24,000 bases of DNA, taken from contig NZ_VBWP01000006.1 of assembly GCF_005771635.1 (NCBI RefSeq), positions 128,470 to 152,469 on the forward strand. Direction: 5' to 3'. The translations under genes were made by a program, and so were the position numbers. Numbering within the stretch: position 1 is the first letter of the stretch; every line of letters begins with the position of its first letter. The notes beneath the pieces were generated by a model, which made no database searches, was not told the origin of the DNA, and saw only the letters and a program-made list of their open reading frames with translations. This document shows positions 3,260 to 18,627 of the stretch, one piece after another. This DNA comes from Culicoidibacter larvae. GTDB taxonomy: Bacteria; Bacillota_I; Bacilli_A; Culicoidibacterales; Culicoidibacteraceae.

Positions 3260-3300
3260 TCTAATCGCTTCCTTCACAAAAAATTTCTTCTGAGACGTCT

Positions 3301-3329
3301 ACTATAAACCCGATTTCGCTATTTCGCAA
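3301..3329 (-). promoter_or_regulatory. Candidate sigma-A promoter of the Ig-repeat surface protein gene
   Basis: Minus strand reads TTGCGA (3324-3329), 17-nt spacer, TATAGT (3301-3306), about 40 nt upstream of the start codon. Confidence 0.35.
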
Positions 3330-3431
3330 TCGATATGTTTCACAAAAAAACTAAATAAATTTATCTGAGCATTTCGGTTGAGAAATTGTTAAAACAGTTA
3401 TATAATTCACCAGCATTTTGTGATTTTTCAG

Positions 3432-3471
3432 AAAAAAAGAACCGCTACAGAGCCAAGCTCTGTAGCGGTTC
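3432..3471 (-). terminator. Rho-independent terminator ending the yhfZYXW unit
   Basis: GAACCGCTACAGAGC / GCTCTGTAGCGGTTC form a 15-bp perfect stem (3439-3453 / 3457-3471) with a 3-nt loop. On the minus strand a T7 run follows. The stem starts 5 nt after the yhfW stop codon. Confidence 0.85.
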
Positions 3472-3476
3472 AAAAA

Positions 3477-4679
3477 TTATTTCAACAACTCAAGGAAAGA
3501 AGTTCCGAATGGCGTCTTAATTCCAAAATAATCAGTAGCCGTTGCACCAACATCAGCCATCGTTTCACGATTGCCGATCCGCACTCCGTGTATACCCTTT
3601 TTATAAATCATCAGCGGCACCCGCTCACGCGTATGCTTACTATGACCAATCGTCGGATCATTACCATGATCAGCCATGACAATTAAAATATCCTCATCAT
3701 TGAGCATCGCTGTCAATTCACCAATTTTTTTATCCGATAAAGTAATTCGATCGCCATACCAAACCGGATCCTCAGCATGCCCGGCTAAATCTGTCTCCTG
3801 AATGTTCAGACAAATAAATCCATTTGGTGTTGCTTCAACTTGTTTGAACAATTCATCAAACAAATATTCACTCTCAACTCCAGGGTATAGTGCCCCGCTC
3901 GGATTGGCAACAATATCCGCAACCTTACCAAGCAATACTACCGGCACTCCAGCTTGATGCAACAATGTTGGCACCTGCACTGAGCTATCAACCCCATACC
4001 CTAAATGAATAACATGATAATCATGCTTATACAAACCAGATGCCGGTGTATCAAGACCAATAAAACCATCTTTCGTTTTCACCGCATCCAGCATATTCTG
4101 CAAACTCACTTCACGACCGCCAAGCGCAATAACCCGAGAAACAGTTACCTGCTCCCGAACGACGCGCCCGATTGCCACAATTTCATCAAAAGTAAGTAGA
4201 TCTAAAGAGCCGCTAACATTAATAACCTGCCCTAAATCAGTCTCCATGTTGTCGGCAACAATAACCGCCTCATCAACAACAATTACATGCAAGCCGTCCT
4301 TCATAAAAAGACGGGTTGTATGTCCAGCTTCCTCAAGCGCTACTGCAATCGCCTCAATTCTTGCATTCAACTTCATAAATTCCGGTTTCTTCGGATCAGT
4401 CCCCATAATTTCCTGATGACCGTAAAAAGTATCAGCACCAAAATGCTTCAAATTACTAGTACCAAAATTAGCATCAGCATGCAACTGCATCTTTCCAACT
4501 GGCGCACCAACCGCTTCCATTAACCCTAAACGCTCAAGCGTCGGCCAATAAAAATCGCCATTAGTTGCCAACAAATGCTTAGCCGTATTAGCACCTTGAT
4601 CCTGCGGACGAACCGTCACAACATCATCCATAGCGCCAACACCAAAACTATCCAGCACAATAACAATAAAACGTCCCAT
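3477..4679 (-). CDS. yhfW: YhfW-like phosphopentomutase-family (alkaline-phosphatase-superfamily metalloenzyme) mutase, 400 aa
   Basis: ATG 4679 with RBS GAAAGGTGA. The track's GTG start at 4688 sits inside that RBS. The N-terminal IVLDSFGVGAMDD and C-terminal MADHGNDPTIGHSKHTRE are the metal-ligand motifs of phosphopentomutase-like enzymes. Size and neighbourhood match E. coli YhfW. Confidence 0.8.
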   Translation of the reverse strand: MGRFIVIVLDSFGVGAMDDVVTVRPQDQGANTAKHLLATNGDFYWPTLERLGLMEAVGAPVGKMQLHADANFGTSNLKHFGADTFYGHQEIMGTDPKKPEFMKLNARIEAIAVALEEAGHTTRLFMKDGLHVIVVDEAVIVADNMETDLGQVINVSGSLDLLTFDEIVAIGRVVREQVTVSRVIALGGREVSLQNMLDAVKTKDGFIGLDTPASGLYKHDYHVIHLGYGVDSSVQVPTLLHQAGVPVVLLGKVADIVANPSGALYPGVESEYLFDELFKQVEATPNGFICLNIQETDLAGHAEDPVWYGDRITLSDKKIGELTAMLNDEDILIVMADHGNDPTIGHSKHTRERVPLMIYKKGIHGVRIGNRETMADVGATATDYFGIKTPFGTSFLELLK

Positions 4680-4709
4680 ATTAATCACCTTTCTCGTGAA
4701 AACTCATAA

Positions 4710-4744
4710 GGCATAAGACCGCGGATAAACCGCTGCCTTATGCC
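4710..4744 (-). other. Intercistronic imperfect stem-loop between yhfX and yhfW
   Basis: GGCATAAG (4710-4717) pairs with CTTATGCC (4737-4744). An inner GCGG/CCGC pairing lies around an ATAAA loop. There is no clear T-run. Confidence 0.4.
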
Positions 4745-4761
4745 CATAATCTTCTAATAAT

Positions 4762-5919
4762 TTAATCTAATTTCTGGCCCAGACTATTATACAAACCAAC
4801 CAACTTTGGTTCACCCTTAGAAATACCTTCAACAATTGCCACCGTACTTCGAGTCACAAAAATTTGCGTGCGGAAAGCCATGATTGCCGTAGCACCAAAA
4901 GCATGCTCACCGTTAACTTCAAGATAGTAGTCAATATTCTCATCAGCAAACGGTGCCATTGTCGCCATATGCTGCTCACCTTTATCATCCAGCAAAACAT
5001 GCTGTAAATGTCCACGGCGATAATAACCGCCACCATATACATAGCTTTGTCCTTTAAAGGTATGCGAAACTTCACTTACATACACCATCGCTGGCTGTTC
5101 TTCCAAATCTTCCACCGCATGCATCGGCGTTGTTCCAGTCAAAGCATGACCTGGCTCACCTTGCGTACCACCAATAGAAGCGATAAAAGGAATTGAGCGA
5201 CTGCATGTCGCTGATGGAATATTCAGCTCACGGATTGAAAATCCGGCTGTTTCCAAGATTTCTTTGGCAGCTTTAACGGTAATAACATTATGGGTCTGAT
5301 TAATTTCATTTGCCTGCTCATCATATAAAAAGCAAGGAAATGAAGTAATACCGGCAATATCCACGCTAGTACATGCTTTAAAAGCATCTAAATAACTTGA
5401 TAACTCATCAATCAAAAAGCCACCATACTGACCTGGATATAGCCGATCCTGCTCATCATTGACAATCCGCAACAAAACCGCCTGCTTCTTACCGAGTTGC
5501 TGCGCAACCCGGTTCACCTCGCGCAACATATCCAATGAATATACAGTAATAAAATCGCTGCCATAAGCAATCACCTTTTCAAGCAAATGCATCGGTATCT
5601 GCACTAAATGACCGGTATTGCCAAGCGGCAGATGGTGATCCATCATTACTTGGGCTTCCTTAAAATCAACCACTACTGCCTTCTTCATACCAACATCATG
5701 GAGACGCTGGGCGATATAAGGATTGCGGCCAATCTGTTTAGTCATATAAAAAAGTTCCATATCATACTCGCCAGCTGTTGCTAACATCACTTTTGCGTTA
5801 GCCTCAATCATATCCATATCCATGACGTAAGTGTCAGGGAGAATTTGACCTGATTGATGCAGCATAATCGCTGCCTCAATCAACTGCGGGTTTCTTTTCT
5901 TGGTAATATCCAAAAACAT
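4762..5919 (-). CDS. yhfX: YhfX-like fold-type III PLP enzyme (alanine-racemase N-terminal-domain family), 385 aa
   Basis: Begins MFLDITKKRNPQLIEAAIMLHQSGQILPDTYVMDMD... The candidate PLP lysine lies in FYMTKQIGRNP. RBS AGGAGG sits 8 nt upstream and overlaps the yhfY stop codon. Size and position match E. coli YhfX. Confidence 0.8.
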   Translation of the reverse strand: MFLDITKKRNPQLIEAAIMLHQSGQILPDTYVMDMDMIEANAKVMLATAGEYDMELFYMTKQIGRNPYIAQRLHDVGMKKAVVVDFKEAQVMMDHHLPLGNTGHLVQIPMHLLEKVIAYGSDFITVYSLDMLREVNRVAQQLGKKQAVLLRIVNDEQDRLYPGQYGGFLIDELSSYLDAFKACTSVDIAGITSFPCFLYDEQANEINQTHNVITVKAAKEILETAGFSIRELNIPSATCSRSIPFIASIGGTQGEPGHALTGTTPMHAVEDLEEQPAMVYVSEVSHTFKGQSYVYGGGYYRRGHLQHVLLDDKGEQHMATMAPFADENIDYYLEVNGEHAFGATAIMAFRTQIFVTRSTVAIVEGISKGEPKLVGLYNSLGQKLD

Positions 5920-5931
5920 ACGCTCTTCCTC

Positions 5932-6282
5932 CTAAAGCGAAGCTAAGAGTGAGCAAATATGAATATACATATAATCCACTTCAGCATCATCAAAAGTCAG
6001 CGGAGCAATTGCCGCAAGCTCTTGCCACAAACTTTCTGCATGTACAAATGCCGGTTCATTTCTTAATTGTTCAGCAATTTGAGGATCGAGTGCCGCAACA
6101 CTTTCACCCTTTTTCTGACGGGCAGTCGCCATCGCCAGATGGGTTAAAAATACTGACGCTTTTTCAGAGTCGGTTGTAACATTTTGTTCATTCATATATT
6201 GAATAACCGCCTGCATATAGTCATAAATCTGCTCATCAATAATGCCGGCAGTTTTTAATACGTTTAACTTCTCTTGTATCAT
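5932..6282 (-). CDS. yhfY: YhfY-like small PRD-domain protein, 116 aa
   Basis: ATG 6282 with RBS GGAGGAG 7 nt upstream (the track start is TTG 6285). Helical protein with the PRD-like motif VFLTHLAMATARQKKGE. Size and position match E. coli YhfY. Confidence 0.7.
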   Translation of the reverse strand: MIQEKLNVLKTAGIIDEQIYDYMQAVIQYMNEQNVTTDSEKASVFLTHLAMATARQKKGESVAALDPQIAEQLRNEPAFVHAESLWQELAAIAPLTFDDAEVDYMYIHICSLLASL

Positions 6283-6300
6283 CAAGACTCTCCTCCATAA

Positions 6301-7224
6301 CTAATATCGCGGAATCATTGCTCCCGCCATGACTGACTGCTGAACTTTTAAAAGTTCAGCAATCTCGACATTTTTCTTTACAATTGTTTCAATCATTGAA
6401 CTTGTTTCAGTAACAATGATAACCGCTCTGGTCATATCAACCTGACGCTCATCACTTTCAATAAAACGATAATTCAAATCCTGATAATTTTTATCAATAA
6501 TTTCATCATAGTTCCAAACTCCGGCATCGATAATACCCTCGCGCAAACCATGAATAATCTGGTGCCCGGGCATTTCAACAAAAGTGACATCAAAGCCATC
6601 AGTCAAACTGTTTGTTAATTCTCTTTGGTCAAACGAACCACTGTCAATAGCGATACGCATCCCATTTTCAATTTGTTTACTGCTGTTATCAGCAAACAAT
6701 AATATGTGCCGTGAAAGATATGAATGCGGACCAAAATCCAAAATGATTTTTATCGGTGCGCCTTCTTGCAGAGCGCGATCTGCAGCAAACTTTGAGGTAA
6801 CGGCAAAACCATATACACCATTAATTACTGACTGAATCCGGTCTTTCGACCCGCGAACGTAAGCCATATTCAAACGAATATTATGCTTACCAAAACATTC
6901 ATACAGTCCAGTTGCAAACCCTTCATATAAACGTGAATAAGGTAAAGGCATGGTGCCGACAACTTGATCAGAAATTGCATACTTCTGCAAAATCTGATAA
7001 TCAATCGCACTTACATAGGTACCCAAATGACCCTTATTTTCAAGCGCAATTGCTCCTTGCGTTTTCAAAAACGTCAATGCGTTTTGCACGGTTCCCCGTG
7101 ACACCCCGAGACGCAATTGAAGCTCGCTGATAATTGGCAGCTTCTCACCCTTATTTATTTGTAATAATTCTTGTGCCAGTTCAGTAATTGTTAAACCGGT
7201 TTTCCGATAAAAAGTCTCATTCAT
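6301..7224 (-). CDS. yhfZ: YhfZ-like transcriptional regulator: N-terminal GntR-type winged HTH plus a ~230-aa ligand-binding-like C-terminal domain, 307 aa
   Basis: HTH segment ISELQLRLGVSRGTVQNALTFLKTQGAIALENKGHLGTYV. Starts at ATG 7224. Size and position match E. coli YhfZ. Confidence 0.8.
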   Translation of the reverse strand: MNETFYRKTGLTITELAQELLQINKGEKLPIISELQLRLGVSRGTVQNALTFLKTQGAIALENKGHLGTYVSAIDYQILQKYAISDQVVGTMPLPYSRLYEGFATGLYECFGKHNIRLNMAYVRGSKDRIQSVINGVYGFAVTSKFAADRALQEGAPIKIILDFGPHSYLSRHILLFADNSSKQIENGMRIAIDSGSFDQRELTNSLTDGFDVTFVEMPGHQIIHGLREGIIDAGVWNYDEIIDKNYQDLNYRFIESDERQVDMTRAVIIVTETSSMIETIVKKNVEIAELLKVQQSVMAGAMIPRY

Positions 7225-7258
7225 AATAGCTCACCCGCAATTTGATCTTATTATTTAA

Positions 7259-7287
7259 ATTGTATTGCTTTTTTTCACAAAATTCAA
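7259..7287 (-). promoter_or_regulatory. Candidate sigma-A promoter of the yhfZ-yhfY-yhfX-yhfW unit
   Basis: Minus strand reads TTGAAT (7282-7287), 17-nt spacer, TACAAT (7259-7264), about 35 nt upstream of the yhfZ ATG. Confidence 0.45.
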
Positions 7288-7345
7288 TAACAAGAGGCGA
7301 GTACGGTCAAGGGAATCTGTTTCCGCTCAACCGATACTCTAGGAG

Positions 7346-7372
7346 TAATCTCTTCTTGGAGCAAAGAGATTA
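7346..7372 (-). other. AT-rich stem-loop downstream of yhfS (weak terminator candidate, no T-run)
   Basis: TAATCTCTT (7346-7354) / AAGAGATTA (7364-7372), 9-bp stem, 9-nt loop. Confidence 0.3.
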
Positions 7373-7400
7373 ACATATATATGTCTACGTGCGAATCACG

Positions 7401-8495
7401 TTATTTAACTTGTGCAATTGCTTCCCGCAAAATCCTAAGAACTGTTTCGCTGCCGGCACGGTTAGGGTTGATCCGAATCATCCGTTTCGATAATTCCGGA
7501 TTGGCCGCGCGGAATGTTCCTGAAAGCCGGTAAAATAATGGCGAAAATTCATATTTAGATTCCGCTCCGACCGGATTCGGCAAACCACCAAGGGTCACTG
7601 CCGCCGCCAACACTTGGTCTGCAATTTCATCTTCTAATTCAACCAATAAAACTTTTGATTGCGCATTGGCAATAAATGCCTGTTTAACCCCAGCAAGTTC
7701 ACCATTGTTCAAGCGCTCATGCAAATCATCAGTAACTTGTGCGGAAATTGCTAAAGCCACCGGTGCATAAATCAAGCCACGTAAAGCATCCAAAGCTTCA
7801 TGCCCCTGCACTTGCAGACCGCCAGAATAATTTTCCTTACGCAATGCCTCAATAATTGCCAAATCGCCAACAATACAGCCAATGCCTTCCGGCCCTAAAA
7901 GCTTAAACATTGAGAAACAAGAAGCACTTGCCCCAAGCTCACTCCCAATCTTTTCAACTTTCATCACTGCATAATTATCATCGGTAATAATTGGCAACTC
8001 AGCGTCAACGCTGCGAATACAAGCGATCACCTCACCCATATCATATGCATCATCCGGACGTTGCCGAGTAAACTGTACCAAAACCGCATCTGGTTTTTGT
8101 GATTCAATGGCTGCCTTTAACGCCGCTAAATCATTGAAATCAGCACTTACCGTTTGCAGTCCCATCATTGCTACTGATGTTCCGGTTGTCGGATAAATCG
8201 GAGCCTCATGAATCAGAAGCTTCTCATGAGGCTTCATCACTGCATAAAGTGCCAAACGAATAGCCATTGTTCCGGCACCACGCACCAGCATAGCCGCCTC
8301 AGTATTGAAAAAGTCAGCTAAGACCCGCTCAACTTTTGCGGTTGTGCGGGGTTGGTTCAACCCCGGCACAACCCCAAGGTCTCCTCGGGTAATAATATCC
8401 TGTCCTTCAAATTCTCTTGTTACCGCGTCAACAAGAGCAAACTGCTTCTGCATAGCTTGGTCAATAGTAATACTTTTTAATGGATAAGTTTTCAT
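7401..8495 (-). CDS. yhfS: YhfS-like fold-type I PLP-dependent enzyme (aminotransferase class V-fold / lyase-like), 364 aa
   Basis: Begins MKTYPLKSITIDQAMQKQFALVD... Contains GAGTMAIRLAL, ITDDNYAVMK, the candidate PLP lysine in CFSMFKLLGPEG, and the C-terminal RINPNRAGSETVLRILREAI. The protein is collinear with E. coli YhfS as I recall that sequence. Confidence 0.8.
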   Translation of the reverse strand: MKTYPLKSITIDQAMQKQFALVDAVTREFEGQDIITRGDLGVVPGLNQPRTTAKVERVLADFFNTEAAMLVRGAGTMAIRLALYAVMKPHEKLLIHEAPIYPTTGTSVAMMGLQTVSADFNDLAALKAAIESQKPDAVLVQFTRQRPDDAYDMGEVIACIRSVDAELPIITDDNYAVMKVEKIGSELGASASCFSMFKLLGPEGIGCIVGDLAIIEALRKENYSGGLQVQGHEALDALRGLIYAPVALAISAQVTDDLHERLNNGELAGVKQAFIANAQSKVLLVELEDEIADQVLAAAVTLGGLPNPVGAESKYEFSPLFYRLSGTFRAANPELSKRMIRINPNRAGSETVLRILREAIAQVK

Positions 8496-8511
8496 TGCTA
8501 TCTGCGCCTTT

Positions 8512-9390
8512 CTATCGGTTCATAAATTTTTGCGGATTAGTAATAAGCATCTTTTCAATAAAGCTCTCACTGATACCACCCTCGCGAATCATTGGCACAA
8601 AGTTATCAAGCAAGAAGGTATACCCTAAACCGCCTAAATATTTCAGATGTGATTTGCGGGTAATATCCAAAGATAAAAACACTTTATCAGTAAATCCTGC
8701 TGCTTCAATAACTTTAAGCATTTCTAATCGGCGGCTATCTGCCATATAATTTTCTTTGCCGATAGTATCAAACTCAACATACACACCTTGTTTCAACATA
8801 TGCATAATATAATCAATATCACCGGTTAAATCAACATGACCGATAACAACCCGATCCAAATCAAAATTATGTTCTTTAAAAAGTGCAACTTGCTCATGAC
8901 CATAAGTCCCAAGCGTCGTATGGGTTGTCAAATTTTTACCAGTCCGGTTAGCTGCAATCATTGCTGCCTGGAACACCTTGTGTTCCTCAGCAGTCATTTC
9001 ATTCTTGCTGCTGCCGATTTCACCGATAATCTCTGCTTTAATACCAGTCCCATCAATACCAATTTCAATTTCATCAATCATAATCTGTGCTAAGGCATCT
9101 ACACCTGAATCAAAGACAACTTGTGGTAAAAATTTATGTTGATAGAAACCAGTAGCGTGAATAATGTTGATGCCTGAAGCCTTCGCTATATCTTCAACAT
9201 ACTTCACATTACGACCCATGCCGATATTTGTCACATCAACAATATTTCTAACGCCTTGTTGATATAATTCTTTATATTCGCCAATTGTTTCCTCAAAACA
9301 GTTTAGGTTACAATCATCTGTACCCTTTAGTCCTGATAAATCAATTGTTGTATGTTCATGCATAAATGTAATTCCATTTACAAGCGGCAT
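8512..9390 (-). CDS. php: Phosphotriesterase-homology protein (amidohydrolase superfamily, PTE family), 292 aa
   Basis: True start is ATG 9390 with RBS AAAGGAG. The track ORF extends to 9657 only by overlapping the upstream gene with an Arg-rich nonsense peptide. Motifs: MPLVNGITFMHEHTTIDLSG (HxH metal motif), AEIIGEIGSS, TTHTT, VIGHVDL, SLDITRKSHL. Same length as E. coli Php. Confidence 0.9.
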   Translation of the reverse strand: MPLVNGITFMHEHTTIDLSGLKGTDDCNLNCFEETIGEYKELYQQGVRNIVDVTNIGMGRNVKYVEDIAKASGINIIHATGFYQHKFLPQVVFDSGVDALAQIMIDEIEIGIDGTGIKAEIIGEIGSSKNEMTAEEHKVFQAAMIAANRTGKNLTTHTTLGTYGHEQVALFKEHNFDLDRVVIGHVDLTGDIDYIMHMLKQGVYVEFDTIGKENYMADSRRLEMLKVIEAAGFTDKVFLSLDITRKSHLKYLGGLGYTFLLDNFVPMIREGGISESFIEKMLITNPQKFMNR

Positions 9391-9403
9391 AAAAACCACT
9401 CCT

Positions 9404-10465
9404 TTATTTAATGTATCCTTGCTGTCTGCTTTGTGCATTTTGGTGGAAATAACGCTGGACAACAGCCGGTATTTCACTCGGAATTGCTCCGGCAACACCC
9501 GCCATCTGCGTAATGACTTCCTGCTCCGAACGACAATATAAAGTAATCCCCGTCGCAATATCCGCCGCCGGCACTGCAATCGCCGTCCCGCCAGCCATAT
9601 TGGCAACCCGTAAAAAACCCTTGCCGCTGCGCTGCTGATTAGCCTTAGTTGCTGCACTGAAACTACCCATTACTGAGTCACCATAACTATGCACATCAAT
9701 TGGCCCCTCAATAAACGCAACCATATCATACTGCGTCATCGCTACTTCTAAAAAGGCAATCGCCGGCGCGCGTTCACTCGCAGCATCAATAAAATCAACT
9801 TCATGCAACACAACCCGAGCAATCCCGCCCAAAGCCTGCCGCAAAACTGCAACAACCTCTAAGCCATTCTCAGTCACTAAATCATAATCCGCCGGTATTG
9901 CTATGTGAATCTCCCGCGATGTTTGGCTTCCTGAGAACCCAAACACATCAAGTGCAGCATCAAGGCTTGCCCAATCACGTGCCATAATACCTGCCGAAGG
10001 TTGAAACTGCAAATTATCAGTTGACTGCTTGACTGCCTCAACAACCGGTAAAAGCGGACTCATAAAAGCAAACAGGTTAAGACTGATTGCCGGTGCTAAA
10101 ACTGAACCACCGCCATCACTGCCAACACCAATATCATTAATACCGGTAAAAACATTGATTGCTGTGCCACTTGACGAACCACTCATATGGCGCCCGGTCA
10201 AAGGATTCAGCCGCTCAACATCAATCGCCCGGCCGTTATCACTGGCAGCATCAACCGTATGCAACAAATACCCGCGCGTTTTCAACTGCTCAACACACGG
10301 CCGCAAAATATCGGTGTTCTTCACACCCATATACGCAGCAAATTCATGCCGCTCAATCCGCTCGCAGCTTTCATCAAAAGCTGCCTGATTCACCGAAACC
10401 ACACTGTGGTATCGGTCGCTCATCGCTGCCATTGTTGCCTTCGCAAAATATTTCAGCTTGTTCAT
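9404..10465 (-). CDS. Compact, divergent amidase-signature (AS) family protein, 353 aa
   Basis: AS core SGSSSGTAINVFTGINDIGVGSDGGGSVLAPA. Candidate Ser-cisSer-Lys triad: K49 (in GVKNTD), S97, S121. ATG 10465 with RBS GCAGGTGA. Typical AS enzymes are ~450-500 aa. The K-to-cisSer spacing here is ~48 aa, against ~75 aa in classical members as I recall. Confidence 0.7.
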   Translation of the reverse strand: MNKLKYFAKATMAAMSDRYHSVVSVNQAAFDESCERIERHEFAAYMGVKNTDILRPCVEQLKTRGYLLHTVDAASDNGRAIDVERLNPLTGRHMSGSSSGTAINVFTGINDIGVGSDGGGSVLAPAISLNLFAFMSPLLPVVEAVKQSTDNLQFQPSAGIMARDWASLDAALDVFGFSGSQTSREIHIAIPADYDLVTENGLEVVAVLRQALGGIARVVLHEVDFIDAASERAPAIAFLEVAMTQYDMVAFIEGPIDVHSYGDSVMGSFSAATKANQQRSGKGFLRVANMAGGTAIAVPAADIATGITLYCRSEQEVITQMAGVAGAIPSEIPAVVQRYFHQNAQSRQQGYIK

Positions 10466-10496
10466 TCGCTATTCACCTGCACTTTTTAAAAAGAAA

Positions 10497-10524
10497 GGTG
10501 CTAAGAGTCTTGTCGCCTAGCACC
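10497..10524 (-). terminator. Terminator-like hairpin inside the operon, between yhfT and the amidase gene
   Basis: GGTGCTA (10497-10503) / TAGCACC (10518-10524), 14-nt loop. On the minus strand TTTCTTTTT follows. Confidence 0.4.
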
Positions 10525-10532
10525 GATTTTTA

Positions 10533-11855
10533 TTATCCACCAAAAATCATTAATATACCTTGCTCTACTAAGTATACAAGATTGATAATAATTCCTAAAC
10601 TAATTGCTGCAATCGGTCCAACCGCTAAATCAACAACTGGTTTTTTCATTGTACGATTCAATAAATATAATCCGGCAACCCAGAAGAATCCAACACCTGG
10701 CACAATTGCTTCTGCGGCTAATGCCCCACCAATAAGCAATGCAACTTCCAACACTTTATTCATCGCAGTACGGATATGTTCACCCATTTCACGAATTCCC
10801 GGGAAGCGGTCTAACCCTTTAGCCACACCGTTCAATAACATGATTTCAACGAACATAATAATGAATCCAACAATAAACGCCACAATTGGATTTCCTTGTA
10901 AAAGAATCCCAGCTACGAATACAAATGTAGTTCCTGCCGGGCTATATACACCGGTAACAATAGCTGTTGAGAACACTAACGGAATAAATCCGATACCGCG
11001 CGCTCCGGCTGCTAATGCTGCCTCAGTAAAGTTTCCTTGACTCATTAAGTTTAATGAAATTGGATCCCCGGCCATTAACGCCATACTTGTTGCCGCACTT
11101 ACTAATCCACCGATTACCGCTAAAATAATCCAGTTTGCTTTAATGCGTTTTACCCGTTCCAAGAAAATACTGACTAATTGCTGATTGGCATTACCATCAC
11201 CTTTAATTGAAATTGCAAATCCGATTAAGAATCCCATACCAACAAGTAATGACATTCCTTCAACACTCAACTTAATGTTAGTACCATTAATTTGTAAAAC
11301 TTGCAACATGTTGATCCAGTTTACCAAGAACATTGATGCAGCTGTTGCCAAAAATGTAATTGCACCCTTTTTAAACCCATGTTGATAAGCAACTGCAATT
11401 GCCGGGAATACCGCAAAAGCAACAACAATCGGACTACCAACTTTTGCTAACGCATCAAGGAAGTTAATCGGTAGCAATGCAAAAGCATCAATGACTAACT
11501 GTAATCCTAAAGTCAATAATACCCCATAAACAGCCCCAACTGCTCCGGCAATGATAATCCCTTTTTTACCGGATGGTGACCAAGTACCGATGATATCAGT
11601 AGCTAAAAGCACACTATGCACCAATAAAATTGACGCCCCAATCGAAACCGGAATACCAAACCCGATAACTAAACCAAAACTTAATGCAAAACTCGTTGCC
11701 GCAAGCTCTTTACGACCAATTTTGCCATCGAGAAATTCCGGCATAACCGGACGTAACCCATCATTAAATACAGCAATCCCGCGATTAGCTAAAATCGCTG
11801 CCAAGGCCCCAACTGCCCCCACTACAAGCAGCTCAACAATTTTCATGAATTCCAT
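10533..11855 (-). CDS. yhfT: YhfT-like polytopic inner-membrane protein (putative transporter), 440 aa
   Basis: Begins MEFMKIVELLVVGAVGALAAILANRGIAVFNDGLRPVMPEFLDGKIGRKELAATSFALSFGLVIGFGIPVSIG... Hydrophobic Gly/Ala/Ile-rich segments run throughout (about 11-12 TM by eye). RBS AGGAGG 8 nt upstream. Size and neighbourhood match E. coli YhfT. Confidence 0.8.
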   Translation of the reverse strand: MEFMKIVELLVVGAVGALAAILANRGIAVFNDGLRPVMPEFLDGKIGRKELAATSFALSFGLVIGFGIPVSIGASILLVHSVLLATDIIGTWSPSGKKGIIIAGAVGAVYGVLLTLGLQLVIDAFALLPINFLDALAKVGSPIVVAFAVFPAIAVAYQHGFKKGAITFLATAASMFLVNWINMLQVLQINGTNIKLSVEGMSLLVGMGFLIGFAISIKGDGNANQQLVSIFLERVKRIKANWIILAVIGGLVSAATSMALMAGDPISLNLMSQGNFTEAALAAGARGIGFIPLVFSTAIVTGVYSPAGTTFVFVAGILLQGNPIVAFIVGFIIMFVEIMLLNGVAKGLDRFPGIREMGEHIRTAMNKVLEVALLIGGALAAEAIVPGVGFFWVAGLYLLNRTMKKPVVDLAVGPIAAISLGIIINLVYLVEQGILMIFGG

Positions 11856-11941
11856 ATAAATTTCCTCCTGAGTATTTCAATACTATTTTTTTGTGATGAA
11901 ATAATCTGTTTTCTCCTGATGTCCTACCCTTAAAATCTTGA

Positions 11942-11977
11942 GTGAATGAGTGCGAGTCAAGCTCACCCTCATTACAC
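11942..11977 (-). other. Imperfect stem-loop immediately after the yhfU stop codon, in the 125-nt yhfU-yhfT gap
   Basis: GTGAATGAG (11942-11950) pairs with CTCATT-A-CAC (11968-11977), with one bulge. Partial inner pairing. On the minus strand a short U4 lies downstream. Confidence 0.3.
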
Positions 11978-11980
11978 TAA

Positions 11981-12346
11981 TTATTTGAGTTTCAACAATT
12001 CGTCCATAACAATCGGAACTATTTTCTCTTTATCTTGTGCTGTGAAACCAAAAGCGATTTTTCCTGAACGCACTTGCTCACGAATTTCTTCTTCTGACAT
12101 CATACTGCTTGGCATTGATAATGTAACACATTTATCATGTCCCAATAATGCCAGCGCCATTGCTAACGCACCGCCGCCGCCAGTATTACAAGCACCGATA
12201 TAGTAATCAGCCTGACCTGCCTGCATAGCCATTGCAGCATCAAGGTCACCTTTTACTTCAATACTTACCTGTCCGTTTCCGTACTTTTCAACAAGCGCTG
12301 CAATTTCAGCCTTGTCAATCTGTCCGCCAACCATAATTCTTAACAT
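11981..12346 (-). CDS. yhfU: YhfU-like DUF2620 protein, 121 aa
   Basis: True start is ATG 12346 with RBS AAGGAG. The track's upstream extension to 12427 covers the leader palindrome. Sequence: MLRIMVGGQIDKAEIAALVEKYGNGQVSIEVKGDLDAAMAMQAGQADYYIGACNTGGGGALAMALALLG... with a single conserved-looking Cys53 in a glycine-rich loop. Confidence 0.8.
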   Translation of the reverse strand: MLRIMVGGQIDKAEIAALVEKYGNGQVSIEVKGDLDAAMAMQAGQADYYIGACNTGGGGALAMALALLGHDKCVTLSMPSSMMSEEEIREQVRSGKIAFGFTAQDKEKIVPIVMDELLKLK

Positions 12347-12364
12347 CGTTTTCACTCCTTTATT

Positions 12365-12388
12365 CAATATACAATATTTTGTATATTG
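12365..12388. promoter_or_regulatory. Perfect 24-bp palindrome in the yhfU leader: candidate operator (YhfZ/GntR-type site?)
   Basis: CAATATACAA-TATT-TTGTATATTG: 10-bp perfect arms with a 4-bp centre. It lies between the predicted transcription start and the yhfU RBS. Confidence 0.5.
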
Positions 12389-12400
12389 TGATATAAAACC

Positions 12401-12420
12401 AAACCATTGCAGCATGGTTT
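12401..12420 (-). other. Small leader hairpin followed by a U-rich stretch (weak attenuator candidate)
   Basis: AAACCAT (12401-12407) / ATGGTTT (12414-12420), 6-nt loop. The minus-strand RNA continues GGUUUUAUAU. Confidence 0.25.
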
Positions 12421-12422
12421 CT

Positions 12423-12433
12423 TTCAATATACA
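12423..12433. promoter_or_regulatory. Third copy of the operator half-site
   Basis: TTCAATATACA at 12423-12433 repeats TTCAATATACA at 12363-12373 exactly, 60 bp away. Confidence 0.35.
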
Positions 12434-12459
12434 TTTTTTTGGCTATTGATTATACTGCT

Positions 12460-12488
12460 ATTATAAGTTATAAAATTTTTAAATGCAA
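12460..12488 (-). promoter_or_regulatory. Candidate sigma-A promoter of the yhfU-yhfT-amidase-php-yhfS unit
   Basis: Minus strand reads TTGCAT (12483-12488), 17-nt spacer, TATAAT (12460-12465). A second TATAAT lies at 12449-12454. The predicted leader is ~105 nt. Confidence 0.55.
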
Positions 12489-12497
12489 GCACTTTCA
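12484..12497 (-). promoter_or_regulatory. cre-like (CcpA catabolite-responsive element) sequence overlapping the -35 box
   Basis: Minus strand tTGAAAGTGCTTGCAt matches WTGNAANCGNWNNCW at 14 of 15 positions. The single mismatch is the central C (T here). Confidence 0.3.
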
Positions 12498-12551: not shown

Positions 12552-13010
12552 TTACTTCACTTGGCCTGCTGCCAACATTACTATTGTCTGTTCAATTCGA
12601 CTTTCACGGGTTTCCGCCTTCTTGGCACTGGTAATCCACTCAACGTATTTTCGCTGATTAGTGTATGATAAACTTTGAAAAAATTGCTTTGCTGCCTGAT
12701 TGTCAGCAAACCGCTCTGCCAAGTCAGTCGGTACCTCAACCTCACGCACTGCTAAATCTTCTTTTAATTCAACCGTGACTTGATCACCAATACCCTTACC
12801 TAACGCTTTTAAGATGTCTTTACGAATACCTAAAATATGGCATGGTGTTTGCATACGCACTAATGAACCGCGATAAATGACCTGTCCATCAAAACGAGCT
12901 TCAACTTTTACCCGGCCTTTCCCAAACTCTTCTTGTACGTCATAAGGAAACTCAACATATGCACCCGGTCCGGTTGTGGCAATAATGGCATCAAATTTGT
13001 ATTTATACAT
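12552..13010 (-). CDS. DUF1905 + YdeI/OmpD-associated family protein, 152 aa
   Basis: ATG 13010 with RBS GGGAGGTGA 8 nt upstream (the track start, GTG 13022, sits inside the RBS). N-terminal YKFDAIIATTGPGAYVEFPYDVQEEFGKGRVKV is DUF1905-like. C-terminal FFQSLSYTNQRKYVEWITSAKKAETRESRI is YdeI-like. Confidence 0.7.
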   Translation of the reverse strand: MYKYKFDAIIATTGPGAYVEFPYDVQEEFGKGRVKVEARFDGQVIYRGSLVRMQTPCHILGIRKDILKALGKGIGDQVTVELKEDLAVREVEVPTDLAERFADNQAAKQFFQSLSYTNQRKYVEWITSAKKAETRESRIEQTIVMLAAGQVK

Positions 13011-13041
13011 TAATATACTCACCTCCCATAAATTATATAAA

Positions 13042-13066
13042 AGAGACTTGCTGCAAGCAAGCCTCT
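13042..13066 (-). terminator. Rho-independent terminator after the EIIC / small-membrane-protein pair
   Basis: AGAGACTTGCT / AGCAAGCCTCT form an 11-bp stem (one A-C mismatch) with a 3-nt loop. On the minus strand TTTTATATAATTT follows. Confidence 0.6.
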
Positions 13067-13128
13067 TTTATTTTCCAGGAGTGTATATTTGTAAGTCACA
13101 CTCGTTATATTGCTATATTACGGAAGTA

Positions 13129-14820: not shown

Positions 14821-14845
14821 ATATTTTACCTCCTTATAGTTACGC

Positions 14846-14859
14846 ATATAGCGCTTACA
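14846..14859 (-). promoter_or_regulatory. cre-like site upstream of the EIIC gene
   Basis: Minus strand tTGTAAGCGCTATAT matches WTGNAANCGNWNNCW at 14 of 15 positions, with the central CG intact. It lies 26 nt upstream of the ATG. Confidence 0.4.
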
Positions 14860-14937
14860 ATTGAAGCTTACCGCTTTTTAGAAAATATTTCAACAAATCC
14901 AGCAATTATGAAATGTATTTTCAATTATTGGAAAGTC

Positions 14938-14971
14938 AAACCCCGATGCCGGTAAAGCGGCATCGGGGTTT
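14938..14971 (-). terminator. Bidirectional-looking Rho-independent terminator closing the tre operon / LPVTG remnant
   Basis: CCCCGATGCCG (14941-14951) / CGGCATCGGGG (14958-14968), 11-bp GC-rich stem, 6-nt loop, flanked by AAA and TTT. Confidence 0.7.
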
Positions 14972-15003
14972 ATTCGCAACGAAACACTAAGCTTTTATCT
15001 TAT

Positions 15004-15282: not shown

Positions 15283-15285
15283 AAT

Positions 15286-16947: not shown

Positions 16948-16975
16948 CTTTATTCGCCTCTCTTTATAAAAAGAA

Positions 16976-17006
16976 GTTGATGTGGCAAGCTGCTTGCCAC
17001 ATCAAC
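16976..17006 (-). terminator. Strong terminator-like hairpin between treP and treC (intra-operon)
   Basis: GTTGATGTGGCAAG / CTTGCCACATCAAC form a 14-bp perfect stem with a 3-nt loop. On the minus strand TTCTTTTTAT follows. It lies within the 66-nt treP-treC gap. Confidence 0.5.
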
Positions 17007-17013
17007 CATTTTC

Positions 17014-18471: not shown

Positions 18472-18509
18472 AGTATAAAACCTCCTAATTTGAAAACCTT
18501 TACACTACT

Positions 18510-18554: not shown

Positions 18555-18579
18555 TATTTTTATCACTAAAAGAAATGAT

Positions 18580-18610: not shown

Positions 18611-18627
18611 AGTTTTGAGTTTCCTCA

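Follow-up and report, generated by a model that had tools for sequence, protein, structure and literature searches.

Escherichia coli K-12 carries a set of eight genes, yhfS, yhfT, yhfU, php, yhfW, yhfX, yhfY and yhfZ. Papers from 2025-26 still term yhfW and yhfZ uncharacterised, and a literature search turned up no paper that gives the set a substrate or a pathway, as a sequence-only reading of the locus described here had supposed. The RefSeq product names of all members of the E. coli set are 'putative' or 'uncharacterized'.

Gene content and conservation

Culicoidibacter larvae is a midge-gut bacterium. ORF analysis of the window, the whole 24,000-nt stretch of its DNA analysed here, shows nine co-directional genes on the minus strand (3477-12346, Table 1). 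For eight of them, BLASTP against E. coli K-12 gives one-to-one homologues, namely YhfS, YhfT, YhfU, Php, YhfW, YhfX, YhfY and YhfZ, with 31-58% identity, and the ninth encodes a short amidase-signature enzyme. The sequence-only reading had described nine consecutive genes at these positions, eight of them matching the E. coli set one for one in a different gene order. The ORFs confirm the genes; Pfam, NCBIfam and BLASTP agree on the match, and the order does differ. The E. coli lengths that it gave (361, 434, 117, 292, 408, 387, 120 and 301 amino acids) are exactly those of the K-12 proteins, and the gap that it gave as 176 nt has precisely that length. With its start at GTG 9657, the longest ORF of php extends into the amidase gene; the true start is 9390.

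Table 1. Features of the yhf/php locus (window positions)
Feature	Position	Strand	Remarks
Strong intrinsic terminator closing the operon	3439-3471	-	15-bp stem with 9 G-C pairs, then TTTTTTT; begins 6 nt past the yhfW stop codon
yhfW-like	3477-4679	-	400 aa; 403 aa if GTG at 4688 is the start
yhfX	4762-5919	-	385 aa
yhfY	5932-6285	-	117 aa; 116 aa counted from the second Met
yhfZ	6301-7224	-	307 aa
Structured spacer yhfS-yhfZ	7225-7400	-	176 nt; 9-bp hairpin 7346-7372; promoter-like TTGAAT-17-TACAAT 7259-7287
yhfS	7401-8495	-	364 aa
php	8512-9390	-	292 aa
amidase	9404-10465	-	353 aa
yhfT	10533-11855	-	440 aa
yhfU	11981-12346	-	121 aa
Ribosome-binding site of yhfU	12355-12360	-	AAGGAG, seen in the sequence; 8 nt before ATG at 12346
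Operator O1	12365-12388	.	perfect 10-4-10 palindrome CAATATACAA-N4-TTGTATATTG; predicted YhfZ binding site
Operator-like site O2	12423-12448	.	degenerate copy, core 12428-12445 (TATACATTTTTTTGGCTA); 85% direct copy of the O1 26-mer
-10 hexamer of yhfU promoter	12460-12465	-	TATAAT, seen in the sequence; invariant in sister contigs L093 and L094
-35 hexamer of yhfU promoter	12483-12488	-	TTGCAT, read from the sequence; invariant in sister contigs L093 and L094

A gene-neighbourhood comparison, proposed beforehand, showed that synteny is strong and held, not lost, in 80 loci of other genomes. Chance adjacency is excluded because the set recurs in this way, and the yhf/php set is a real, conserved unit. 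The conservation across phyla that had been claimed is borne out by the fetched loci, which span Bacillota, Fusobacteriota, Coriobacteriia, Elusimicrobiota and Gammaproteobacteria and take in one spirochaete plasmid and one archaeon. Some loci lack a core gene: YhfW and YhfZ are missing on a Bacillus thuringiensis megaplasmid and YhfS in Vibrio halioticoli. The amidase is present, as noted earlier, but it is neither an 'extra' gene nor peculiar to this genome: most Bacillota-type loci have it as their regular ninth gene, and it is found in 40 of the 60 loci clear of contig ends.

Enzymes

All families predicted for the locus were found by Pfam search, the Amidase match (residues 91-128) lying just under the threshold with 26.0 bits against 27. 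This protein is 100% identical to a Culicoidibacter larvae 'amidase family protein', and all seven homologues whose genomic context was looked up are in yhf-type loci. Its residues K49, S97 and S121 do not vary among 55 orthologues; in an alignment with malonamidase E2 they fall on cis-Ser131 and the nucleophile region. Php is a binuclear-metal hydrolase of the PTE family (Pfam PTE 3.1e-82; 1.9e-84 to PDB entries 1BF6 and 4LEF) with 47% identity to E. coli Php, and H11, H13, E124, H157, H185 and D242 are invariant together with K212, R245, Y83, Y215 and Y257.

Two of the proteins are PLP enzymes. YhfS is of fold type I (Pfam YhfS-like_C 1.7e-42, with weak Aminotran_5 and Met_gamma_lyase matches), is 58% identical to its E. 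coli homologue, matches PDB 4J8L ('uncharacterized protein YhfS') at 3e-133 and has an invariant S195-x-x-K198 motif. YhfX is of fold type III (Pfam YhfX-like_C 1.3e-35 and Ala_racemase_N) with 45% identity to E. coli YhfX, a match of 1e-106 to PDB 4KBX ('uncharacterized protein YhfX') and an invariant K61.

YhfW is a phosphomutase of the alkaline phosphatase superfamily (Pfam Metalloenzyme 4.7e-40), 49% identical to E. coli YhfW. It scores 544.8 on the YhfW-type NCBIfam model PRK12383 (cutoff 254) and stays under the cutoffs of the NCBIfam DeoB models. In Bacillus cereus phosphopentomutase the residue aligned with T84 is the nucleophile Thr of 'GKDTMTGHWEIMG'; position 84 is Thr in 38 orthologues and Ser in 37, and the metal ligands D10, D297, H301, D337, H338 and H349 are invariant. 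The enzymes of the locus look active, since their catalytic residues are all invariant: the Lys-Ser-Ser triad of the amidase, the metal-binding residues, the lysines of the PLP enzymes and the Thr/Ser nucleophile.

YhfT, YhfU and YhfY

YhfT is a polytopic membrane protein (Pfam YhfT 4.8e-165; 33% identity to E. coli YhfT) and is presumed to be the carrier. Its AlphaFold2 model is all-helical with a pLDDT of 76 and has no fold match in PDB, every TM-score being at most 0.2. D32, R35, D87, R286, E337 and R362 are invariant charged residues. In neither sequence nor fold was it found to resemble any EIIC, and the likeness to UlaA is limited to a 15-residue motif (E 0.045).

YhfU belongs to DUF2620 (Pfam 1e-44, with a weak match to Gly_rich_SFCGS) and is 36% identical to E. 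coli YhfU. It has an invariant loop, G-A-C53-x-T55-G-G-G-G, in which C53 and T55 are constant in 84 sequences. It had been read as 'RpiB/EIIB-like', and comparison of its AlphaFold2 model (pLDDT 96) with PDB folds upholds the first half of that description: the best match is RpiB (1o1x, TM 0.68), whereas PTS EIIB structures reach only 0.38-0.48. The Cys is placed after strand 3, not strand 1. On the modelled fold, a canonical EIIB is thus rejected. YhfU could simply be an isomerase, because in an hhalign alignment its C53-x-T55 falls opposite the catalytic C66-G-T68 of RpiB.

YhfY is a stand-alone PRD protein whose Pfam PRD score, 23.0 bits, just reaches the gathering threshold. H49 and R56 do not vary, and 79 of 80 sequences have H109; both PRD histidines are thus retained, with 60 residues between them. 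The PRD protein that the sequence-only reading had taken for a partner of the GntR-type regulator is present, but it tracks YhfU and YhfT and not the regulator, because YhfY occurs without YhfZ in nine loci (YhfZ without YhfY once) and because natural DUF2620-PRD fusion proteins exist. These fusions (P0433 and P0511) are found on 14 contigs from three data sources, and YhfY aligns full-length to the C-terminal half of P0433.

Link to the phosphotransferase system

What links YhfU to the PTS is that yhf-type clusters of two remote lineages, one of them archaeal, include genes for Enzyme I and HPr but none for EIIA, EIIB or EIIC. The locus with the fusion protein (L095/L096) has the order DUF2620-PRD fusion, YhfW, YhfX, HPr and Enzyme I. 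Its HPr scores 77.7 on TIGR01003 (cutoff 47.9) with the motif GLHARPS, and its Enzyme I 437 on TIGR01417 (cutoff 341.7) with the motif TSHAAILAR. In the archaeal locus (L099), one strand encodes HPr, YhfT, PRD, Enzyme I and Php, and the facing strand YhfS, DUF2620, YhfX and YhfW; Enzyme I scores 585 bits and HPr 99.8 bits. Such co-location was seen in only two lineages among about 100 loci, or three with a locus (L062) that has an additional HPr two genes upstream of yhfZ. EIIA was not found in any yhf locus, and the 120 operon-linked accessory genes include no recurrent kinase. Canonical PTS EII genes are present in the window, and the organism therefore has a PTS.

Across about 100 related loci, the yhf genes form a conserved route for breaking down a nutrient, and this route appears to be connected to the sugar-phosphotransferase relay via unconventional parts. 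One further locus (L098), in which an ABC importer adjoins the PRD-DUF2620 pair in place of YhfT, suggests that the role of YhfU and the PRD protein is soluble or regulatory rather than that of an EIIB docked on YhfT.

Proposed pathway

We tentatively propose, with a little less than even confidence, that the locus combines a PEP-dependent, non-canonical PTS-type uptake with an inducible catabolic operon for an imported nitrogen-containing, amino-sugar-like compound. For the phosphate route, the sequence of steps and the class of substrate, our inference is as follows. YhfT would, on comparative evidence, move the substrate across the membrane in the role of EIIC. YhfY and YhfU would act as one unit, drawing phosphate from the general Enzyme I and HPr encoded elsewhere in the genome and handing it to the substrate, with YhfY as an EIIA-like relay and Cys53 of YhfU as the donor, while signalling transport to the regulator. 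Phosphorylation of this type would explain a locus without a kinase yet with a phosphomutase. The amidase and Php may then open the intermediate or deacylate it, its amino group may be handled by YhfX (racemase/eliminase type) and YhfS (aminotransferase/lyase type), and YhfW may shift the phosphate along the carbon skeleton for entry to central metabolism.

A role in the catabolism of a nitrogen-containing, sugar-like compound, as had been suggested, agrees with the enzymes and with the accessory NagB and SIS genes. A NagB-like gene is operon-linked in seven scanned loci and in L091, the copy in L003 passing the nagB cutoff, and such a deaminase may add to the pathway in other genomes. The fusion locus has a KDPG-type aldolase in both L095 and L096 and an SIS protein gene in L095. 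PBP4B-like lipoprotein genes are operon-linked in 12 loci of diverse taxa. PBP4B is part of the murQP operon of E. coli, and AmiE acts outside the cell as a MurNAc-L-Ala amidase (PMC5061867); the secreted PBP4B/AmiE-like lipoprotein probably releases the substrate from a polymer such as the cell wall.

Regulation

Transcription of the operon would start at the yhfU promoter. The promoter proposed at 12460-12488 stands when judged by eye, with 17 nt between the hexamers; a consensus scanner misses its -35 hexamer, which shares only 3 of its 6 bases with TTGACA and is passed over for that reason. O1 has the core TATACA-N6-TGTATA (12368-12385), and O2 is found 60 nt farther upstream, shortly after the -10 hexamer. 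They are the only operator matches with at most two mismatches in the window. O1 is invariant in the two sister contigs while the flanking sequence varies. Of 85 loci, 49 have its 18-bp palindrome (at most one mismatch) in their yhf region, nearly always directly upstream of yhfU, yhfY or yhfZ, with 73 sites inside yhf regions and 9 outside (0.098 vs 0.011 per kb, a 9-fold density). TATTCA-N6-TGAATA-type variants are found upstream of yhfZ and yhfX in E. coli.

The regulator YhfZ combines a GntR-type HTH with a periplasmic-binding-protein-like sensor domain (Pfam YhfZ_C 1.8e-65, plus HTH_41 and GntR matches; NCBIfam YhfZ_full 386.9, cutoff 260) and is 33% identical to E. coli YhfZ. It is predicted to bind the TATACA-N6-TGTATA operators, which are placed after the -10 hexamer and before the ribosome-binding site of yhfU. 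The spacer between yhfS and yhfZ is lineage-specific, with 0-50 nt at the same place in other genera, and is 95% conserved in the sister contigs. Its RNA has a minimum free energy of -52 kcal/mol (z -4.8) and no Rfam match; the promoter-like site scores 9/12.

Conclusions

New findings are the invariance of catalytic residues in all enzymes, the TATACA-N6-TGTATA operator, the RpiB-like fold of YhfU with its invariant Cys-x-Thr, the natural fusion of YhfU and YhfY, the Enzyme I and HPr genes within yhf-type clusters of two remote lineages, and the recurrent accessory genes for NagB and a PBP4B/AmiE-like lipoprotein. Judged by homology, the operon is the orthologue of E. coli yhfZYXW-php-yhfUTS with one addition, the amidase commonly found in Bacillota.

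Gene content and relation to the E. coli operon

The locus of Culicoidibacter larvae is truly orthologous to the E. coli K-12 operon yhfZ-yhfY-yhfX-yhfW-php-yhfU-yhfT-yhfS (b3376-b3383), with which it shares eight families and which is equally orphan. Nine open reading frames fill it on the minus strand, as the sequence-only reading had placed them (see the table of features), and the families predicted there were recovered by Pfam: Metalloenzyme, Ala_racemase_N with YhfX-like_C, PRD, HTH_41/GntR with YhfZ_C, YhfS-like_C, PTE, YhfT and DUF2620. Pfam and NCBIfam together identify all eight families in the window (YhfS, YhfT, YhfU/DUF2620, Php/PTE, YhfW, YhfX, YhfY/PRD and YhfZ). Reciprocal BLASTP against the fetched K-12 locus gave the proposed one-to-one match, with 31-58% identity across the eight families. 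The E. coli protein lengths quoted in the sequence-only reading were exact, and lengths are near-identical between the two loci.

The gene order differs from that in E. coli, as had been stated, and the 176-nt gap between yhfS and yhfZ is real: the window locus, unlike the E. coli operon, is split into two blocks by this structured spacer. It also has a short amidase gene that the E. coli operon lacks, whereas frlABCDR adjoins the E. coli locus and not that of the window. Two further reading frames were rejected. A 381-aa php frame starting at a GTG overlaps the amidase gene, and translation from 9390 yields the 292 aa alignable with E. coli Php; a 293-aa antisense frame across the amidase gene and yhfT has a low-complexity translation.

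No assignment of substrate or pathway to this gene set was found in the published literature when searching with the gene names, DUF numbers, cog1735, Lmo2620, EF_0830/SFCGS, PTER and PBP4B/AmiE, and yhfZ and yhfW are still uncharacterised in papers from 2025-26. The structures of E. coli Php (1BF6, 4LEF), YhfS (4J8L) and YhfX (4KBX) have been solved, all three products being deposited as uncharacterised. Even with structures of these three products, yhf/php is one of the few multi-enzyme operons in E. coli K-12 without a known substrate.

Features of the window and of related loci
Locus	Feature	Position (strand)	Description
Window	Giant surface/adhesin-like protein	2-3259 (minus)	Runs off left end
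Window	Terminator	3439-3471	Strong, 3' of yhfW
Window	Nine yhf-type genes	3477-12346 (minus)	
Window	yhfS-yhfZ spacer	7225-7400	176 nt
Window	Rejected php frame	8512-9657 (minus)	GTG at 9657
Window	Amidase gene	9404-10465 (minus)	353 aa
Window	Rejected antisense frame	10159-11040 (plus)	
Window	Predicted operator	12365-12388	Perfect 10-4-10 palindrome between -10 hexamer and ribosome-binding site of yhfU
Window	Second operator-like site	12423-12448	85% copy, 60 nt upstream of palindrome, also between -10 and ribosome-binding site
Window	TATAAT of yhfU promoter	12460-12465	
Window	TTGCAT of yhfU promoter	12483-12488	
Window	DUF1905/OmdA (YdeI-like) gene	12552-13022 (minus)	
Window	Terminator	13037-13071	16-bp stem
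Window	Stand-alone EIIC	13441-14847 (minus)	PTS block 13441-18471
Window	GH13 alpha-amylase-family enzyme	15286-16947 (minus)	PTS block
Window	EIIBC	17014-18471 (minus)	PTS block
Window	Second giant surface/adhesin-like protein	18628-23961 (minus)	
L093, sister contig (Logan ERR3179325)	Amidase gene	10643-11704	
L062, Erysipelotrichales	Alpha-D-phosphohexomutase and extra HPr	1851-3542	HPr two genes upstream of yhfZ and the only PTS protein there
L075, Erysipelotrichaceae	Glucose-6-phosphate dehydrogenase gene	6712-8193	
L087, B. thuringiensis megaplasmid	Reduced locus and following genes	15151-19711	
L089, Vibrio halioticoli	PTS genes, DUF7916, porin	5082-9157	
L098, high-GC (GCA_046295415.1)	PRD-DUF2620 pair and ABC importer	1-2820	
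L095/L096, metagenomic, GC 64%	Cluster		YhfT, SDR, 317-aa protein of unassigned family, divergent GntR/UTRA regulator, YhfU-PRD fusion, YhfW, YhfX, HPr, Enzyme I, KDPG-type aldolase
L095/L096	Divergent part		2-hydroxyacid dehydrogenase, cupin-type GPI, YhfS, class-III aminotransferase; then SIS protein
L099, archaeon (GCA_964514965.1; uL16_euk_arch above cutoff)	Cluster		HPr, YhfT, PRD, Enzyme I, Php on one strand; facing YhfS, DUF2620, YhfX, YhfW

Conservation of the locus

A genome scan with the YhfT alignment gave 213 relatives, the best 80 loci of which were kept and their reading frames labelled by the nine window proteins. Sixty of these 80 loci are clear of contig ends. The eight core genes occur with the amidase in 40 of them and without it in 15, and one core gene, usually YhfZ, is missing in five. 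All eight genes are present in 55 of the 60, and the set is clustered, co-directional and syntenic in unrelated genomes, in keeping with the conservation that had been expected of it. The amidase, previously taken as an extra gene, is indeed there as the ninth, but with 40 of 60 unclipped loci carrying it, it is a usual member rather than a mere addition. Amidase-free loci include those of Lactobacillaceae, Proteiniclasticum and Streptobacillus. The Bacillus thuringiensis megaplasmid locus lacks YhfW and YhfZ, and the Vibrio halioticoli locus lacks YhfS. YhfU almost always adjoins YhfT in the 80 loci kept. YhfY is present without YhfZ in nine loci, and YhfZ without YhfY in one, at a contig end.

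The idea that the genes are adjacent by chance or through an annotation artefact, with no common function, is already refuted by the synteny data and has a negligible probability. In 80 loci across phyla these eight or nine families are found together, in shuffled internal order, and the loci have an operator in common. Moreover, four gene junctions of the window operon are only 12-16 nt long and a single terminator closes it. An origin on plasmids or mobile elements was also rejected; YhfT is found on only 6 of 72,556 plasmid records; these six are chromids, megaplasmids or chromosomes labelled wrongly, with no mobilisable one among them.

Carriers that live with animals include Enterococcus, Vagococcus, Granulicatella, Erysipelothrix, Lactobacillus from the bee gut and vagina, Lachnospiraceae and Cetobacterium. 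Because the pathway is widespread in animal-associated bacteria, its target is probably a common host-, diet- or microbe-derived compound.

Some loci have a different composition. In the B. thuringiensis megaplasmid, three ATP-grasp genes and a gene for an MFS transporter come after the reduced set (PRD, DUF2620, YhfT, PTE, YhfS and YhfX) and might be a linked ligase-type cluster. Three loci from Negativicutes and related Bacillota (L004, L028 and L029) have two YhfT paralogues and no YhfZ; in them an NYN-domain (RNase-like) gene separates YhfU from the second YhfT.

Regulation

The promoter proposed for yhfU holds by eye, with 17 nt between TTGCAT and TATAAT. The two related sites downstream of it are the only occurrences of the core TATACA-N6-TGTATA in the 24-kb window at up to two mismatches, and no match was found upstream of the window's yhfZ, so that only the yhfU promoter carries the motif there. 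Copies with at most one mismatch occur in the yhf region of 49 of 85 loci. Across these 85 loci, 73 sites lie inside and 9 outside the yhf regions, a 9-fold difference in density, and nearly all are directly upstream of yhfU, yhfY or yhfZ, often paired 67-70 bp apart. The palindrome is unchanged in two sister contigs, whereas its flanks differ. E. coli has TATTCA-N6-TGAATA between yhfY and yhfX and TTTTCA-N6-TGAATA just upstream of yhfZ, the half-site being T(A/T)TTCA in comparison with TATACA in the window. YhfZ of the window scores 386.9 with NF041241 (cutoff 260) and has an N-terminal HTH_41/GntR domain and YhfZ_C. We infer from the motif that TATACA-N6-TGTATA is the predicted YhfZ operator.

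The spacer between yhfS and yhfZ has an unusually stable fold of -52 kcal/mol (z -4.8). Other genera lack it and have 0-50 nt at this place; in the sister contigs it is 95% conserved, and the differences concentrate in a single hairpin. Candidate roles are those of an internal terminator or stabiliser and of a processing site, but the spacer may also be an inserted element. Rfam matched no RNA family, either in the whole window at gathering thresholds or, with E values of up to 1, in 7150-7450, and the window has neither a riboswitch nor a known leader.

A DUF1905/OmdA gene is located between the PTS block and the yhfU promoter, with a terminator upstream of it. It has the same place in the sister contigs L093 and L094 and no evident link to the yhf genes.

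Enzymes of the operon

All enzymes of the operon look active, judging from residue conservation in alignments of 55-85 orthologues per family. The metal ligands of Php (PTE, 3.1e-82), H11, H13, E124, H157, H185 and D242, are invariant in 82 sequences and correspond to a binuclear centre with a Glu bridge like that of E. coli PHP; K212, R245 and three Tyr are also invariant. So are K198 of YhfS, within an S-x-x-K motif, and K61 of YhfX. YhfW belongs to the PRK12383 family (544.8 against an NCBIfam cutoff of 254) and falls below the cutoffs of both DeoB models (TIGR01696, 134 against 341; PRK05362, 163 against 256). In the alignment with Bacillus cereus phosphopentomutase, its T84 takes the position of the nucleophile Thr; 38 sequences have Thr here and 37 have Ser. 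The metal ligands of Mn/Zn type are invariant.

With the model for phospho-furanose lactonases of the Lmo2620 type (NF045706), Php reaches 79.3 bits against a cutoff of 630, and it is a separate PTE subfamily about equally far from lactonases, PTER and esterases. Mammalian PTER is a hydrolase of N-acetyltaurine and N-acetyl-beta-alanine (PMC11374699, PMC13311154). It is of the same PTE family as Php, and both have Glu rather than carboxylated Lys as metal bridge. The PTER substrate residues R204 and R233 correspond to L160 and L188 in Php, as mapped by spacing from the metal ligands in a reading of the sequences and not by alignment, the invariant residues of Php being K212 and R245 instead. 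Since PTER shows that small anionic N-acyl amides, besides lactones and esters, are within the reach of the PTE family, Php may cleave a lactone, an ester or an amide.

The membership of Php in the phosphotriesterase family might also suggest degradation of an organophosphonate or organophosphate, with Php as phosph(on)oesterase, YhfS as PhnW-like aminotransferase and YhfW as PhnA-like C-P/P-O hydrolase acting on an aminoalkyl-phosph(on)ate. YhfS does match class-V aminotransferases, and the alkaline phosphatase superfamily of YhfW also holds phosphonoacetate hydrolase, with a weak YhfW match to the phosphonate enzyme PhpG. However, the phosphopentomutase architecture of YhfW is complete, down to the cap domain with two invariant arginines, and E. 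coli Php is reportedly without appreciable phosphotriesterase activity. This proposal also leaves the links to NagB, SIS, KDPG-aldolase, PRD, Enzyme I and HPr unexplained, and we consider it very improbable.

The amidase of the window is 100% identical to a Culicoidibacter larvae protein. It has 644 homologues in the protein database, all of them short (320-370 aa). All seven whose context was looked up are in yhf-type loci: in Isobaculum, Izimaplasma, a Negativicutes genome, Elusimicrobiota, two more metagenomic contigs and a sister lineage of the window organism. The gene is found after yhfT, after php or after yhfW, which means that its place is free but its membership stable. The catalytic triad K49, S97 and S121 is invariant in 55 orthologues; in malonamidase E2 the residue aligned with S97 is cis-Ser131, and Ser155 follows 24 residues on, as S121 does here. 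The match to Pfam Amidase (PF01425) is limited to residues 91-128 and gives 26.0 bits, below the gathering threshold of 27, and the protein is shorter than the full AS domain of about 445 positions. It is a truncated, divergent AS subfamily. The amidase of sister contig L093 is 84% identical to that of the window whereas all yhf proteins are 91-99% identical; the amidase is evolving faster than the other genes.

A proposed link to the phosphotransferase system

The explanation we favour, tentatively and with slightly less than even confidence, is that the operon encodes a catabolic route, driven by the PTS and regulated by YhfZ, for an amino-sugar-like compound. Phosphate would be relayed from Enzyme I/HPr to YhfY and then to Cys53 of YhfU. 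YhfY is a bare single PRD of 117 aa (23.0 bits, which equals the Pfam threshold), and Pfam detects no RNA-binding (CAT) or DNA-binding domain attached to it. Two histidines about 60 residues apart are conserved, H49 in all 80 sequences and H109 in all but one. DUF2620 proteins are rare, with 179 representatives among 1.84 billion in an exhaustive profile search, and one of them (P0433) is a fusion of DUF2620 and PRD, the C-terminal half of which aligns full-length with the window YhfY and keeps both His. This kind of fusion occurs on 14 contigs from three sources. Fusions of Php-YhfU, YhfU-Php and YhfU-YhfT (P0381, P0500 and P0442) were set aside as possible artefacts because they are singletons from one or two contigs, one with a frameshift-like junction.

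Genes for HPr and Enzyme I are part of the clusters in a high-GC metagenomic lineage (L095/L096) and in an archaeon (L099). Both proteins exceed the NCBIfam cutoffs in the former and have their active-site motifs; in the latter, Enzyme I scores 585 bits and HPr 99.8 bits. No EIIA, EIIB or EIIC was found in these clusters, no EIIA in any yhf locus examined and no recurrent kinase among 120 operon-linked neighbours. PTSIIA_gutA genes near L002 and L031 were rejected as the missing EIIA, being part of a neighbouring glucitol-type PTS operon with its own Php paralogue. The fusion, the clusters with Enzyme I and HPr, the loci with YhfY but without YhfZ and the lack of a kinase tie the PRD/DUF2620 pair to a PEP-dependent relay, and suggest that this relay may be the source of the phosphate handled by YhfW. 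A relay from Enzyme I/HPr through YhfY to Cys53 would, if true, be a new kind of component for the PTS, which is considered fully catalogued. The canonical PTS block with EIIBC, GH13 and EIIC genes upstream in the window shows that the organism has a PTS.

YhfU had been described as an RpiB/EIIB-like small Cys protein, of which the first half stands as regards the fold. The model (pLDDT 96) has RpiB as best fold match in the PDB (Foldseek, TM 0.68, probability 1.0) but reaches a TM of only 0.38-0.48 with PTS EIIB structures, which argues for an RpiB-type fold and against a canonical EIIB. The invariant Cys follows strand 3, whereas the phospho-Cys of canonical EIIB is in the loop after strand 1, and hhalign aligns 16 columns with UlaB (E 0.23). 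C53-x-T55 pairs weakly with the catalytic C66-G-T68 of RpiB (hhalign, E 0.033), and a sequence comparison of YhfU with the PDB gave noise only. On the modelled fold and the Cys-x-Thr evidence alone, YhfU looks like an isomerase.

Such an isomerase is central to the main rival, an ordinary secondary-transporter operon in which YhfU, as a cytoplasmic enzyme, would act on a sugar phosphate or amino sugar, YhfT would be an ion-coupled permease and YhfY would be phosphorylated by HPr only for catabolite control of YhfZ, with phosphate supplied by the substrate or by a kinase encoded elsewhere. Conserved charges are buried in YhfT, as is typical for ion-coupled carriers, and it does not resemble EIIC: hhalign found no similarity to the EIIC of the window and aligned only 15 columns with UlaA. 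Its fold gave a TM of at most 0.2 throughout the PDB, which is weak evidence of absence as the model is moderate (pLDDT 76). The RpiB-like fold and catalytic loop, the lack of EIIA everywhere and an ABC importer beside the PRD-DUF2620 genes of one locus (L098) agree with this rival. Nevertheless, we think it rather unlikely because it does not explain why an isomerase is fused to a PRD, why Enzyme I and HPr are inside the yhf-type operons of the archaeon and the high-GC lineage, or why YhfU and YhfT are nearly always adjacent, and no kinase recurs near the loci. YhfU is also about 30 residues shorter than RpiB, so that the C-terminal phosphate-binding residues cannot be matched, and LacAB_rpiB in Pfam gave no match.

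In L098 the PRD gene and the DUF2620 gene share a 4-nt overlap and are followed by genes for an SBP_bac_5 protein and an ABC permease, with no YhfT. This arrangement indicates that the pair can travel with a different importer, and that it may work in soluble form, as a PTS-dependent phosphotransferase or sensor, instead of docking on YhfT as an EIIB would.

An extension of the PTS-driven route, possible but doubtful, is that YhfY, YhfU and YhfT, with the related PRD/SFCGS/DUF431x module, constitute a class of PTS permeases or PTS-dependent phosphotransferases that has so far escaped recognition. The PRD would relay from HPr to the donor, Cys53 of the RpiB fold would hold the phosphate and the membrane carrier would have a fold absent so far from solved structures, Enzyme I and HPr of the archaeal and high-GC loci only feeding the system. 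E. coli K-12 would then have an undiscovered PTS and a complete unknown catabolic pathway of amino-sugar type.

Neighbouring genes and candidate substrates

Only two families recur across taxa among the 120 operon-linked accessory genes, PF00144 and NagB-like proteins. PF00144 proteins are found in 12 loci from several phyla, twice inside the cluster. A lipoprotein signal is present in nearly all of them, and among NCBIfam models they match PBP4B/YfeW best, with 230 bits, under the cutoff of 385. NagB-like genes are found in 7 scanned loci and in L091, and one passes the nagB cutoff. PBP4B is encoded in the murQP operon of E. coli, and AmiE of Bacillus subtilis is an extracellular MurNAc-L-Ala amidase (PMC5061867). 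Other hints of sugars are the SIS, cupin-GPI and KDPG-aldolase genes of L095/L096 and the Lac/Cel-type PTS genes that adjoin the Vibrio locus and the window's own locus. The accessory genes would fit an amino-sugar or amino-sugar-acid type of compound released from a polymer, narrowing the candidate substrates to amino-sugar or cell-wall-like compounds.

A more specific proposal is salvage of cell-wall fragments from peptidoglycan or teichoic acid. A lipoprotein of PBP4B/AmiE/FmtA type would release the fragment outside the cell, the amidase and Php would cut amide or ester bonds to D-amino acids, YhfX would racemise and YhfS transaminate these, and YhfW and NagB would handle a phospho-amino-sugar or polyol-phosphate. 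The PBP4B-like lipoproteins and the NagB genes are what such a route would use, but both are absent from the window, and neither a MurQ-type etherase nor NagA recurs among the 120 operon-linked genes. YhfX is of the alanine-racemase type. YhfW would be superfluous for substrates of peptide only. The wall peptide of E. coli is not amidated, which agrees with the lack of the amidase there, but the Lactobacillaceae loci lack it too. A PASTA-domain protein gene upstream in Erysipelothrix and a Peptidase_M23 gene upstream in L091 point to the wall, each from one lineage. Altogether cell-wall salvage seems improbable.

Sugar-phosphate genes are found near several loci. A glucose-6-phosphate dehydrogenase gene is directly upstream of yhfZ in two Erysipelotrichaceae loci (L043 and L075), and an alpha-D-phosphohexomutase gene and an extra HPr gene are upstream in the Erysipelotrichales locus L062. 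These neighbours hint at sugar-6-phosphate or phospho-lactone chemistry around the pathway. In Vibrio halioticoli, the PTS genes together with DUF7916 and porin genes lie directly upstream of the yhf locus.

The window locus is also flanked by genes for two giant surface proteins. One has at least 10 InlK_D3 Ig-like repeats and a signal peptide, and the other, of 1777 aa, has pAdhesive_6, SdrD_B and seven Listeria-Bacteroides (Flg_new) repeats. In Isobaculum (L002) a giant InlK_D3/SdrD_B protein is encoded 2.4 kb downstream of the yhf locus, after two other genes.

Comparison with known systems

The operons murQ-murP-yfeW of E. coli and murQRP-amiE-nagZ of B. subtilis (PMC5061867) resemble the yhf loci in that a PBP4B/YfeW-like lipoprotein gene is found in 12 of the latter and NagB recurs. 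In contrast to the mur operons, yhf loci have no MurQ or MurP, and the lipoprotein is absent from the window and scores under the PBP4B cutoff.

The logic proposed for the yhf locus is like that of PTS-linked phospho-lactone pathways, to which the E. coli ula regulon for L-ascorbate belongs and, reportedly, the operons of Lmo2620 and Bh0225, enzymes of the same PTE family as Php. In each, PEP-dependent phosphorylation on entry would be followed by opening of the phosphorylated ring by a metal-dependent hydrolase and by sugar-phosphate enzymes. The yhf locus differs in having no canonical EIIA, EIIB or EIIC, YhfT sharing only a 15-residue motif with UlaA, and in the addition of two PLP enzymes and an amidase.

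Regulators that combine a PRD with EIIB-like and EIIA-like domains in one protein (MtlR, LicR and ManR type) and PRD antiterminators (BglG/LicT) have, like YhfY, a PRD with two conserved phosphorylatable His coupled to Enzyme I/HPr, and the P0433 fusion likewise joins a PRD to a small Cys-bearing alpha/beta domain. YhfY, however, is without a DNA- or RNA-binding domain, its partner domain has the RpiB fold and not that of a Gat-type EIIB, and the DNA-binding YhfZ is a separate GntR-family protein that is often absent.

The conserved cluster EF_0829-EF_0839/AHA_3910-3917, made up of TIGRFAM families, presumably encodes a PRD protein, an SFCGS glycine-rich protein, DUF4310/4311/4312 membrane proteins, a SelA-like PLP enzyme, an aldolase and an amidohydrolase. 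If so, it has the same module of PRD protein, small Cys protein, membrane protein(s), PLP enzyme and amidohydrolase, although the membrane proteins and enzymes are of other families. YhfU has weak matches to Gly_rich_SFCGS/EF_0830 (2e-4, 3e-4) and YhfY to EF_0829 (4e-3). To our knowledge this cluster is equally uncharacterised.

DhaKLM is a PTS-dependent dihydroxyacetone kinase that works through the EIIA-Man, HPr and Enzyme I-like domains of DhaM together with the ADP bound to DhaL. Although its proteins are unrelated to the yhf proteins, it is a precedent for Enzyme I/HPr-driven phosphorylation of a metabolite without an EIIC permease, which fits the arrangement of the PRD-DUF2620 pair with an ABC importer in L098.
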